Of a stretch of 64,000 nt of DNA, positions 2,552-20,495 are shown piece by piece; positions within the stretch are counted from its first letter, which is position 1; each line of letters begins with the position of its first letter. Location of the stretch: the NCBI RefSeq assembly GCF_058153355.1, contig NZ_CM177019.1. The stretch is one strand, 5' to 3'. The position numbers and the translations under genes were made by a program. Below the pieces are notes generated by a model, which saw nothing but the letters and a program-made list of their open reading frames with translations, did not search any database and was not told the origin of the DNA.

Positions 2552-4035
2552 GCAATCACCCCCAGCAGACGCGCCACCGTGACGCGATCGGAGTAGTCCA
2601 GACGCTGATTGCCAACAATCTGGTAATCCTCATGACCTTTGCCCGCGACCAGTACCACATCATTCTCTTTAGCCTGCATAACGGCGCAAGTCACCGCTTC
2701 AGCACGGCCTTCCATCACTTTGGCATGTCCGGCATCTAACATTCCCGCCAGAATATCGTTGATGATAGCGCGCGGTTCTTCGGTACGCGGGTTATCGTCC
2801 GTTACCACCGCCACGTCAGCAAATTCTTCCGCAATCGCGCCCATCAAGGGACGTTTGCCTTTATCACGATCGCCACCACAGCCAAAGACGCACCACAGCT
2901 TGCCTGCACAGTGAAGCCGTGCAGCCTGCAAGGCTTTTTCCAGTGCATCCGGCGTATGCGCGTAATCCACCACCACCGTTGGTTTGCCAGGCGCAGTGAA
3001 CACTTCCATACGCCCGCAGACGGGCTGCAGACGAGCAGCGGTTTTCAGCAGATCAGCCAGTGGATAGCCCAGCGCCAGCAGCGTCGTCAGCGCCAGCAGC
3101 AGGTTGCTGACGTTAAAAGCGCCCATCAGATGGCTTTCAATTTCGCCATCGCCCCAGCTTGAGCTAAAGCGAATAGTCGCACCGCTGTCGTGATAGTTCA
3201 CTTCAGTCGCTTTCAACCAGCGTCCGTGACAGTTCGGATTGATATGACCTTCCATTGATACCGCAACCGCGTCCGGCAGTTTTGCCAGCCAGCGGCGGCC
3301 CACTTCATCGTCGGCGTTAATAATCGCCTGACCGCAATGATGCTCAGAATAAAGCAGCCATTTCGCCGCTTCGTAGTGTTCCATATCACCATGGTAATCA
3401 AGGTGATCGCGGCTCAAGTTGGTAAAGACTGACGCCGCAAATTTCAATGCCGCCACACGGTGCTGTACCAGCCCGTGGGAGGAAACTTCCATTGCGCAAA
3501 AAGTCGCGCCCTGCTCCACCAGCCCCGCCAGCTCATGCTGAACGTCGACTGCCGAACCGGTGGTATTTTCTGTTGGGATCACTTTTCCCAGCAGGCCATT
3601 ACCAACAGTACCCATTACCGCGCTTGTTTCGCCAAGCAGTTGGCTCCACTGCGCCAGAAGCTGAGTAGTCGTAGTTTTGCCGTTGGTGCCCGTTACGCCC
3701 ACGAGACGTAAATTGTCAGAGGGTTCATGGTAAAAGCGGCCCGCCAGTGCAGATAAACGCTCATTGAGCTGGCTGAGATAGATGACCGGTACGCCGTGCA
3801 TTTCACGGATTTCACCGTCGGTCGCCTCATCTTTCGCCTCTGCAATAATGGCAGCCACACCTTGCGCTATCGCCTGCGGGATATATCGACGCCCGTCCGC
3901 CTGATGACCTACTACAGCTACAAAGAGATCGCCCGCCGCAGCCACACGGCTGTCGAGTGTCATCTCTCGCAGTGCTCGCGAAGGTGCGTCTGGCACCCAC
4001 GGAGCAAGAAGGTCGCGCAAATTACGATCTGCCAC
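2548..4035 (-). CDS. murE: UDP-MurNAc-L-Ala-D-Glu--meso-diaminopimelate ligase MurE
   Basis: 495-aa ORF starting [30 protein letters not shown] with the motif GTNGKTT; 4-nt overlap with murF. Confidence 0.97.
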
Positions 4036-12830: not shown

Positions 12831-13488
12831 ACTTAACTCCACTGTCACACTTAACTCCCTTTCCCTTATTGGAATGCAGAGAAATAATCCTCGAGAATAT
12901 GATTTATCATGCATATAAAATAAGAAAAAGGAAAATGAGAAAAATTAGGAAAACATAAAGATACGGGTTCTTATAAAAACAGAACCCATTGCCGAGTAAA
13001 GAGTCATTTACCGCAGCATAATAATCCATAATGTTTTTGTTGCGAAAACAATCTAATCATAACTACCGCGAATACTCAATCATCCACAAAATGGATTAAA
13101 TGTGCTTTTTTAATAATTAATTTATATGTTTAATGCATTAATTCTTAACATTAATTGAACAATAATATTCACCAAATGAATATCAAAAAATTAGCAAAAC
13201 ATATAATTCAATACAAATCATCAAGATAGGTTTTGTAACGCGTGCATTTTATCCCCCTTTTCCTCGTTGATTAGATGCAAAAATTTATTCTGAAATATGT
13301 CAACCGATGAAAAGCGTCGGTGGTTAAGCAGAAATTAATATCGCTTGTTTTAACCACCGCAGCACAATTAGCTAATTTGACGAATGCAGAACTCACTCTG
13401 GCGGAACGTTTTTGTTGCGTCAGGGTTGACATCCGTTTTTGTATCCAGTAACTCTAAAAGCATATCGTATTCATCTGGAGCTGATTTA

Positions 13489-13575
13489 ATGACTCACATC
13501 GTTCGCTTTATCGGTCTACTACTACTAAACGCATCTTCTTTGCGCGGTAGACGAGTGAGCGGCATTCAGCATTAA
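13489..13575 (+). CDS. leuL: leu operon leader peptide
   Basis: 28-codon [31 protein letters not shown] with four consecutive CUA Leu codons, immediately followed by an attenuator hairpin and upstream of leuA. Confidence 0.85.
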
Positions 13576-13596
13576 GCCAGCACGCAGTCAAACAAA

Positions 13597-13626
13597 AAAC
13601 CCGCGCCATTGCGCGGGTTTTTTTAT
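13597..13626 (+). terminator. leu attenuator (rho-independent terminator)
   Basis: aaaaCCCGCGCcattGCGCGGGttttttt: a GC-rich stem followed by a T-run, just after leuL. Confidence 0.75.
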
Positions 13627-16332: not shown

Positions 16333-18349
<2,017 letters not shown>

Positions 18350-18382
18350 TTTGTACACCGTCCCGCACTCAATCGCCAAAAA

Positions 18383-18609
18383 GAAAAAAGCCAGCAGATA
18401 ATCACTGCTGGCGTGGCGATTAACACCAATACTCAGTCACACATGATGTCCGCAAATCAGTAGTCAGAATGACTCCCCTCCCACTGCATCAGTTCTTCAA
18501 GCATAGTTAATCGTTGTGGGACGCTTAACCAACGCAACCAGCACAACGTCGCTGTCGCGGTAAAATAGTGCTGATAAAACTGATGCATGGGACACCTCCT
18601 TGCTTCATC
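18383..18609 (-). ncRNA. sgrS: SgrS small RNA (glucose-phosphate stress)
   Basis: The minus strand reads GATGAAGCAAGGAGGTGTCCCATG...TGACTGAGTATTGGTGTTAATCGCCACG CCAGCAG tgattat CTGCTGG CTTTTTTCTTTTT. It contains the sgrT ORF, the conserved 3' base-pairing region and an intrinsic terminator, and is divergent from sgrR. Confidence 0.8.
18457..18588 (-). CDS. sgrT: SgrT small protein (PtsG inhibitor) encoded within SgrS
   Basis: 43-codon ORF MHQFYQHYFTATATLCWLRWLSVPQRLTMLEELMQWEGSHSDY with an AGGAGG Shine-Dalgarno sequence; near-identical to K-12 SgrT as I recall it. Confidence 0.8.
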   Translation of the reverse strand: MHQFYQHYFTATATLCWLRWLSVPQRLTMLEELMQWEGSHSDY

Positions 18610-18676
18610 GTTAGGAATTATTGACTTAATATAGGGAAAATAAAATTGCTGACTTTTGCGCAGGAGTTCCCCTTTT

Positions 18677-20332
18677 ATGCCATCTGCTCGTCTGCAACAA
18701 CAGTTCATCCGCCTGTGGCAATGCTGCGAGGGTAAATCGCAGGACACAACGCTCAACGAACTAGCGGAGTTATTGAGCTGCTCCCGTCGTCATATGCGCA
18801 CCCTGCTCAATACCATGCAGGATCGCGGCTGGCTGACGTGGGAAGCGGAGGTCGGGCGCGGTAAACGCTCACGTTTAACATTCCTCTATACCGGGCTGGC
18901 GCTTCAGCAACAGCGGGCGGAAGACTTACTGGAGCAGGATCGTATCGATCAGTTGGTGCAACTGGTTGGCGACAAAGCGGCTGTGCGGCAAATGCTGGTT
19001 TCTCATCTGGGGCGTACCTTCCGTCAGGGGCGGCACATCCTGCGCGTTCTCTACTATCGTCCGTTGCGCAATCTGCTGCCCGGCAGTGCATTGCGCCGTT
19101 CCGAAACCCATATCGCCCGGCAAATCTTCAGTTCGCTAACGCGCATAAATGAGGAAAATGGGGAACTGGAAGCAGACATCGCCCACCACTGGCAGCAAAT
19201 ATCACCGCTTCACTGGCGCTTCTTTTTGCGTCCAGGAGTCCATTTTCATCATGGTCGTGAACTGGAAATGGACGATGTGATCGCCTCTTTAAAACGAATC
19301 AATACGCTGCCGCTCTATTCGCATATTGCTGACATTGTGTCGCCGACGCCCTGGACGCTGGATATCCATCTCACGCAACCGGACCGCTGGTTACCGTTAC
19401 TGCTGGGGCAAGTTCCGGCGATGATCCTGCCACGAGAATGGGAAACCCTCAGTAACTTTGCCAGCCATCCCATCGGAACGGGTCCTTATGCAGTGATCCG
19501 CAACAGCACCAATCAACTGAAAATTCAGGCATTCGATGACTTCTTCGGTTATCGCGCATTAATCGACGAAGTAAATGTCTGGGTTCTGCCAGAAATTGCC
19601 GACGAGCCAGCCGGCGGTCTGATGCTAAAAGGGCCGCAGGGCGAGGAAAAAGAGATTGAAAGTCGGCAGGAGGAAGGTTGCTACTATTTACTGTTCGACA
19701 GCCGCACCCACCGTGGGGCGAATCAGCAAGTCAGGGACTGGGTAAGTTATGTGCTTTCTCCAACTAATCTGGTCTATTTCGCCGAGGAACAATACCAGCA
19801 ACTCTGGTTTCCGGCTTATGGACTGCTCCCCCGCTGGCATCATGCCCACCCGGCGCAGTGCGAAAAACCTGCCGGGCTGGAAAGCCTCACCCTGACCTTT
19901 TATCAGGATCATATTGAGCATCGGGTGATTGCCAGGATCATGCAGCAGATTCTGGCAAGTCATCAGGTCACACTTGAAATTAAAGAGATCAGCTATGATC
20001 AGTGGCACGAAGGAGAGATCGAGAGCGATATCTGGCTTAACAGCGCCAACTTTACGCTGCCGCTGGATTTTTCGCTGTTCGCGCACTTGTGCGAGGTGCC
20101 GCTGCTCCAACACTGTATTCCGATCGACTGGCAAGCCGACGCCGCCCGCTGGCGCAATGGCGAAATGAATCTGGCGAACTGGTGCCAGCAACTGGTCGCC
20201 AGCAAAGCAATGGTGCCGCTCATCCACCACTGGCTGATCATTCAGGGGCAACGCAGTATGCGCGGCCTGCGCATGAACACTCTCGGCTGGTTCGATTTTA
20301 AATCCGCGTGGTTTGCGCCACCGGATCCATGA
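18677..20332 (+). CDS. sgrR: Transcriptional regulator SgrR
   Basis: Canonical start [69 protein letters not shown] (551 aa), with a solute-binding-protein-like C-terminal domain. Confidence 0.93.
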
Positions 20333-20359: not shown

Positions 20360-20455
20360 CTAACGCCGTTCTCAACGGGGTGCCACGCAGACGCGTGCGC
20401 TGAGAAAATACCCGTCGAACCTGATCCGGATAACGCCGGCGAAGGGATTTGAGGC
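20360..20455 (+). promoter_or_regulatory. TPP riboswitch (thi-box) in the thiBPQ leader
   Basis: Conserved thi-box elements ...ACGGGGTGCC...CTGAGA...ACCCGTCGAACCTGATCCGGATAACGCCGGCGAAGGGA immediately upstream of thiB. Confidence 0.75.
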
Positions 20456-20495
20456 TCCTTCTCAAGTCCTTTGCCACTCTTCTTTGAGGTGCAAA

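Follow-up and report, generated by a model that had tools for sequence, protein, structure and literature searches.

SgrS is the textbook dual-function small RNA of sugar stress. In the 64,000-nt stretch of DNA analyzed here (hereafter the window), a complete sgrS gene lies on the minus strand at 18383..18609. A cmscan search against Rfam family RF00534 (SgrS) matches this interval over the full model (positions 1–232 of 232) at 226.3 bits (gathering score 37; E = 1.9e-64); none of the aligned pairs is flagged as non-standard, and a scan of the whole window gives the same SgrS result. The initial annotation had placed the gene at exactly these coordinates and on this strand. Read directly from the minus strand, the dual-function small RNA is GATGAAGCAAGGAGGTGTCCCATG, 227 nt in length, and its true 3′ end may fall a few nucleotides beyond, within 18378–18383.

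The open reading frame list and the Rfam scan together give the gene order leu leader, leuABCD, sgrS, sgrR, TPP riboswitch, thiBPQ. The small RNA is therefore divergent from sgrR, a placement used earlier as a criterion for SgrS (PMC2760817), and sits between sgrR and leuD (17744–18349). On the plus strand at 18677..20332, sgrR encodes a 551-aa protein that activates sgrS transcription; it scores 1121.6 bits with the NCBIfam equivalog NF010149 (cutoff 476), and the matching RefSeq loci annotate it as sgrR. Farther out, the leucine operon leader (13475–13624, plus strand; RF00512, 147.5 bits) lies upstream of leuA, and the TPP riboswitch (20366–20465, plus strand; RF00059, 66.1 bits), which corresponds to the SroA region of K-12, lies upstream of thiB. 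E. coli RM6067W, an O157-type strain with ATT for the sgrT ATG, carries an insertion between sgrR and this riboswitch: the T3SS effector gene espY2 (L003 548–1117).

Alignment with annotated sgrS and SgrT sequences, which the initial annotation had proposed as a check, yielded the Rfam match, a Pfam match and near-identical annotated RefSeq loci in E. coli; the reading frame is uninterrupted and the region aligns with SgrS over the whole model, the two points on which the original call had been made to depend. The annotated sgrT/sgrR locus of E. coli R32_14_1F is 99.7% identical to the window over 331 nt, and the complete 227-nt sgrS is base-identical in two other assemblies (L012 and L013). 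Over 7 kb, identity is 98.3–98.5% to three other NCBI assemblies and 97.9% to a Logan read-assembly, whereas it is 92.5–94.5% to E. albertii and a cryptic clade; the values at the locus and over 7 kb rule out a species other than E. coli. Judged by its sequence, then, this is an intact, ordinary sgrS/sgrT locus of a kind for which public genomes already carry annotation.

The 5′ part of sgrS contains sgrT at 18588..18457 (minus strand; SgrS nt 22–153), and translation from the ATG at 18588 gives the 43-aa peptide MHQFYQHYFTATATLCWLRWLSVPQRLTMLEELMQWEGSHSDY. [quoted passage not shown] Pfam family PF15894 (SgrT) matches residues 3–37 with 48.2 bits (cutoff 27), compared with 49.6 for SgrT of K-12; NCBIfam returned no match for the peptide, and Pfam served instead. 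The length of the ORF is exactly conserved in E. coli, E. albertii and the cryptic clades.

Compared with K-12 SgrT (b4662; MRQFYQHYFTATAKLCWLRWLSVPQRLTMLEGLMQWDDRNSES), the peptide differs at 9 of 43 residues (R2H, K14T, G32E, D37E, D38G, R39S, N40H, E42D and S43Y), six of them among the last seven. His2, Thr14 and Glu32, named beforehand as examples of a few substitutions, are thus real, but 'a few' was too low a count. We read these differences against an alignment of 13 SgrTs reaching down to 47% identity, for which a representative protein search supplied the cross-genus sequences after an initial protein search had given Escherichia sequences only. The invariant residues (F4, Y8, F9, W17, L18, R26, L27 and W36) are all kept, the near-invariant ones (Y5, L30, L33, M34 and Q35) are likewise present, and the window peptide thereby has the conserved leucines and aromatic residues of the SgrT family, a motif described previously (PMC2760817). 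All nine differences lie at columns that vary within the family; two of them, at 32 and 37, give the window the family-majority residue.

An E. coli mutant can be complemented by the SgrT of Salmonella, Klebsiella or Erwinia (PMC2760817; PMC4021124), and in K-12 the contact of SgrT with unphosphorylated EIICB-Glc is made through the KTPGRED linker (PMC3901232). Because every invariant residue is kept, the differences lie in variable columns and SgrTs of these other genera complement E. coli, the SgrT of this allele is likely functional, and its departures from K-12 are most likely natural polymorphism at variable positions that leaves function unimpaired. Codon comparisons of sgrT show 2 synonymous and 7 nonsynonymous differences from E. 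albertii and 5 of each from a cryptic clade; across the Escherichia comparisons, the synonymous excess is not strong, and a gene this short shows no clear mark of purifying selection. SgrT also appears to be dispensable in at least one lineage of the same allele class, since sister alleles of O157:H7 lack the start codon (ATG to ATT).

The AGGAGG sits in GGAGGTGTCCC, a broken form of the K-12 inverted repeat GGGGGTGCCCC in which both arms are broken; K-12 has GGGGG as its Shine-Dalgarno sequence. Translation of sgrT is repressed by the K-12 hairpin and derepressed by C-to-T or C-to-A substitutions in its C arm (PMC2760806), yet this stem-loop at the ribosome-binding site was present in only 3 of 15 strains (Horler & Vanderpool 2009, PMC2760817). 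Among 5,399 complete genomes, the window form is found exactly in 89, with one mismatch in 3,825 and with two mismatches, as in K-12, in 1,485; the T at SgrS nt 18 is likewise confined to 89 of the 5,399. When the first 100 nt are folded, the predicted energy needed to open nt 9–27 is 4.1 kcal/mol in the window and 10.4 kcal/mol in K-12, but in the full-length fold the predictions are 17.4 and 13.6 kcal/mol, respectively, and the advantage is gone. We therefore do not claim higher SgrT output from an open ribosome-binding site, as the edge seen in contexts of 60–100 nt vanishes in the full-length fold.

The part of the RNA that would pair with its targets is better preserved. The longest 3′ block identical between the window and K-12 sgrS is the seed block at 18423..18448 (minus strand; SgrS nt 162–187), which includes the ptsG-pairing nt 168–187 with G176 and G178; the functional seed nucleotides were defined experimentally (PMC7870926). 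Complementarity to the ptsG ribosome-binding site is accordingly retained in the 3′ part, with the K-12 ptsG leader taken as a proxy for the strain's own, which lies outside the window; ptsG from −60 to +30 is identical to K-12 in 5,136 of 5,424 genomes. Immediately 5′ of the seed, nt 159–161 (18449–18451, minus strand) read GGA in the window and CUG in K-12. In K-12, CCUGCA at nt 158–163 pairs with UGCAGG of asd, whose site I uses SgrS +158 to +176 (bioRxiv 10.1101/221978); the window has CGGACA at this place, and the CCUGCA:UGCAGG extension of asd site I is lost, while the asd UGCAGG is unchanged in the three strains aligned. The asd site I duplex is predicted by RNAduplex at −19.0 kcal/mol for the window against −25.8 kcal/mol for K-12, values of which we rely only on the qualitative loss, as the program ignores intramolecular structure and unrestricted pairings over-extend. 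In another strain, E. coli EBJ001 of the K-12 class, sgrS has a 15-nt deletion (about nt 157–171; L004, approximately 3225–3240) that also removes the 5′ portion of the ptsG-pairing region, and this sgrS may be a natural riboregulation-defective allele.

The double-hairpin 3′ module, a putative Hfq-binding module after the definition in PMC7870926, is predicted to fold in both alleles. Its small stem-loop (18414..18428, minus strand; nt 182–196) is predicted in the window and in K-12 despite changes in loop and stem. The Rho-independent terminator hairpin (18390..18412, minus strand) comprises 8 bp, six of them G-C, and a 7-nt loop according to the terminator scan, the predicted fold and the Rfam alignment, and its stem has one more G-C pair than that of K-12. 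It is followed by a T6-C-T5 tail (18378..18389, minus strand; from the sequence and the terminator scan), where K-12 has T8. Work in K-12 led to the rule that an Hfq-competent 3′ end, and hence efficient Hfq binding, takes at least seven consecutive T and a moderate hairpin (PMC5558911), and U224 tail mutants lose 40–50% of their abundance and show read-through (PMC7870926). The window tail has only six uninterrupted T against this rule of at least seven, with both module hairpins predicted. T6-C-T5 also ends the alleles of O157-type E. coli, E. albertii and the cryptic clade, every setA-less Escherichia allele examined has it, and it resembles the Rfam consensus more closely; because it occurs genus-wide, the tail is presumably adequate for Hfq. 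Read-through of the K-12 sgrS terminator serves as setA mRNA (PMC9765468), whereas read-through in the window would enter leuD in antisense, without setA coding output.

On the other side, a 67-nt spacer (18610..18676) separates the sgrS +1 (18609) from the sgrR ATG (18677, plus strand), the same spacing as in K-12; it has two differences from K-12 and matches the spacer of the cryptic clade at 100% identity. Earlier work describes the stretch as conserved and locates the promoter of sgrS in it (PMC2760817; PMC4021124); this SgrR-dependent promoter has AATAAT at 18617–18622 (minus strand) as its likely −10 element, with no consensus −35. The initial annotation had put a divergent sgrR promoter about 65 bp upstream; the divergent sgrR is there, but what lies 67 nt away is its start codon, and a sigma-70 scan of the plus strand of the spacer gives no sgrR promoter. 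Two weak plus-strand sigma-70-like matches (9/12) do occur inside the sgrS 3′ end, at 18373–18402 and 18420–18447, antisense to sgrS and directed toward sgrR; shuffled sequences give an expectation of 0.5 for such matches. For K-12, binding of RpoN/NtrC in this spacer has been reported from gSELEX.

The far side of sgrS places the window in an allele class. Only 33 nt (18350..18382) separate the end of sgrS from the leuD stop codon; no setA appears in the open reading frame list, and a tblastn search of the window for SetA found nothing, whereas K-12 has setA (1,179 bp) between sgrS and leuD. A homologous locus with sgrT and sgrR annotated is present in 5,399 of 5,426 complete E. coli genomes, the sgrS match being absent from the other 27, and three sgrS matches sit on records labelled plasmid. 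The whole query, including the leuD junction, matches at 95% identity or more in 2,155 of the 5,426 (about 40%), and 3,244 genomes match at 80–95% with the match ending at the terminator. The number of genomes with setA, 3,241, is essentially that of this low-identity class, and setA is at least 99% identical in 3,228 of them. Among the E. coli inspected, R32_14_1F, RM6067W (O157-type), 2013C-4282 and E200086 lack setA; K-12, EBJ001 and an O8:H8 strain have it. Horler & Vanderpool 2009 (PMC2760817) described a 'CFT073-type' SgrS, 88% identical to that of K-12, together with the O157:H7 start-codon mutation, and sequence comparison puts the window in this CFT073-type, setA-less class.

The class extends beyond E. 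coli. In E. albertii and cryptic-clade Escherichia, sgrT directly adjoins leuD and the tail EELMQWEGS.S.Y is held in common, and seven of the SgrT changes (G32E and the C-terminal tail) define, at the sequence level, a major class made up of CFT073/O157-type E. coli, E. albertii and the cryptic clades. Among setA-less lineages, the sgrS 3′ part is 96–100% identical while flanking genes are 90–95% identical; in comparison with K-12, identity over this 3′ part falls to 81%. Because E. albertii and the cryptic clades also lack setA and have sgrS beside leuD, the simplest reading is that the window layout is ancestral and that the K-12 class replaced its sgrS 3′ end on gaining setA. It appears that a block replacement or acquisition gave K-12 its sgrS 3′ third together with setA, which would make K-12 a derived outlier at this locus.

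The sgrR of the window is about 93–94% identical to both K-12 and O157 sgrR and 97% identical to its nearest relatives, whereas the 3′ domain of the neighboring sgrS shows 100% identity to O157. As these alignments read, the sgr locus is a mosaic in which the RNA is under much stronger constraint than sgrR, the gene of its regulator.

Within the class, this particular allele is rare yet known, as far as sequence records go. The exact peptide (P0027), which combines H2 with T14, is recorded as 'glucose uptake inhibitor SgrT [Escherichia coli]' (EGO8350496.1, EJE3888343.1, HBC2917671.1 and HBN1998441.1) and occurs on 14 contigs; H2/K14 occurs on 38, and R2/T14, the form of RefSeq SgrT WP_001248772.1, and R2/K14, the form of a further record (P0040), on at least 1,000 each. 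R2H (SgrS G26 to A) is the sole rare variant among the nine K-12 differences, and both R2H and K14T arose recently. No complete RefSeq genome reproduces the first 80 nt of the window sgrS exactly, the nearest having one mismatch. Strain-specific novelty was considered and rejected, as the exact peptide and the exact 227-nt RNA both occur in other assemblies.

We therefore favor, with a probability of roughly 0.93, the reading that this is the chromosomal sgrS of the setA-less E. coli class, acting both as a riboregulator and as a source of SgrT as in K-12 and Salmonella. The sequence and structure family, the intact ORF with its ribosome-binding site, the identity of the seed, the conservation of the target site and synteny all point this way, and they are the observed part; induction, Hfq binding and SgrT activity are extended from related systems. 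By homology to K-12 and Salmonella, accumulating sugar phosphates would lead the divergently encoded SgrR to activate sgrS. Hfq would then bind the 3′ module, composed of a U-rich stretch, the small hairpin, the terminator hairpin and the U tail, and nt 168–187 would pair with the ribosome-binding site of ptsG as well as with manXYZ, yigL and further targets, so that translation is blocked and RNase E decay follows. The 5′ part would meanwhile be translated into the 43-aa SgrT, which would bind unphosphorylated PtsG (EIICB-Glc) and stop glucose uptake.

That the locus is a chance resemblance or a pseudogene remnant found no support and is excluded by the full-length match at E = 1.9e-64 and by synteny and annotation in thousands of genomes. 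It is improbable that only the riboregulator works and that sgrT has become, in this lineage, an ORF without functional relevance that drifts along the path taken by O157:H7. The ATT start of O157-type alleles of the same class (PMC2760817), nonsynonymous codons that equal or exceed synonymous ones in the small Escherichia comparisons and the recency of R2H and K14T would all suit such drift, but the window retains its ATG and a consensus AGGAGG at the optimal 6-nt spacing, lacks the inhibitory K-12 hairpin, keeps the exactly conserved ORF length and every family-invariant residue, and scores about as well as K-12 SgrT in Pfam.

A rather less unlikely alternative, though still a doubtful one, is that the allele is functional with a balance unlike that of K-12: more SgrT, weaker or altered Hfq-dependent riboregulation and read-through without coding output. 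The lower opening energy of nt 9–27 in the first 100 nt is consistent with this, as is the derepression of SgrT by C-arm mutation of the K-12 repeat (PMC2760806), although that edge is lost in the full-length fold. The U6-C-U5 tail and the extra terminator G-C pair, set against the rule of at least seven T with a moderate hairpin (PMC5558911) and the reduced abundance and read-through of U224 tail mutants (PMC7870926), could point to the same shift, but this tail is ancestral, genus-wide and nearer the Rfam consensus. The weaker asd site I duplex opposite an asd UGCAGG that is invariant in the strains inspected adds to the case, within the limits of a program blind to intramolecular structure, and the window has no setA for which read-through could serve as mRNA, as it does in K-12 (PMC9765468). 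All such features belong to the class, and none is specific to the window. We hold only tentatively that K-12 is atypical and derived, and that a dual-function RNA with a different balance operates in the class to which about 40% of E. coli and every other Escherichia examined belong.

As a finding, the locus re-identifies a known small RNA and matters little, its SgrT 'substitutions' being catalogued natural polymorphism. The comparison nonetheless suggests that K-12 sgrS is unrepresentative of the species, as most Escherichia alleles are without its RBS-occluding hairpin and T8 tail, and extrapolating the quantitative behavior of K-12 SgrS and SgrT to pathogenic lineages calls for the native allele. 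Were the balance indeed different, conclusions drawn in K-12 on the relative weight of SgrT and riboregulation, and on target hierarchy, would fail for almost half of E. coli, among them the inspected O157:H7 lineage and, following Horler & Vanderpool, CFT073.

Set beside named systems, the window falls in one class with the CFT073/O157-type allele, with which it shares an identical 3′ 101 nt, the EELMQWEGSHSDY tail, the lack of the K-12 RBS hairpin and the absence of setA downstream, and from which it differs by R2H (H2 with T14 on the 14 contigs) and by the T at nt 18. SgrS of O157:H7 is of the same setA-less class and has an identical 3′ domain, but there ATT replaces the sgrT ATG and the allele is presumed SgrT-null (PMC2760817; PMC13293527), whereas the window keeps its ATG. 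The alleles of E. albertii and the cryptic clades (P0030 and P0032) likewise have sgrS next to leuD, the T6-C-T5 tail, a 3′ part 96–97% identical to that of the window and an SgrT ending in EELMQWEGS(D/H)S(D/E)Y, yet their SgrTs differ at 5–7 residues and their flanking genes are 90–95% identical. With K-12 MG1655 (sgrS b4577, sgrT b4662), the window has in common the 227-nt length, the 67-nt spacer, the seed at nt 162–187, a 43-aa SgrT, the double-hairpin 3′ module and a nearly identical first ~125 nt of sgrS. By contrast, nt 142–161 and the terminator have strongly diverged, the 3′ part being 81% identical over 90 alignable nt, and K-12 has an RBS-occluding hairpin, a T8 tail and setA, where the window is without all three.
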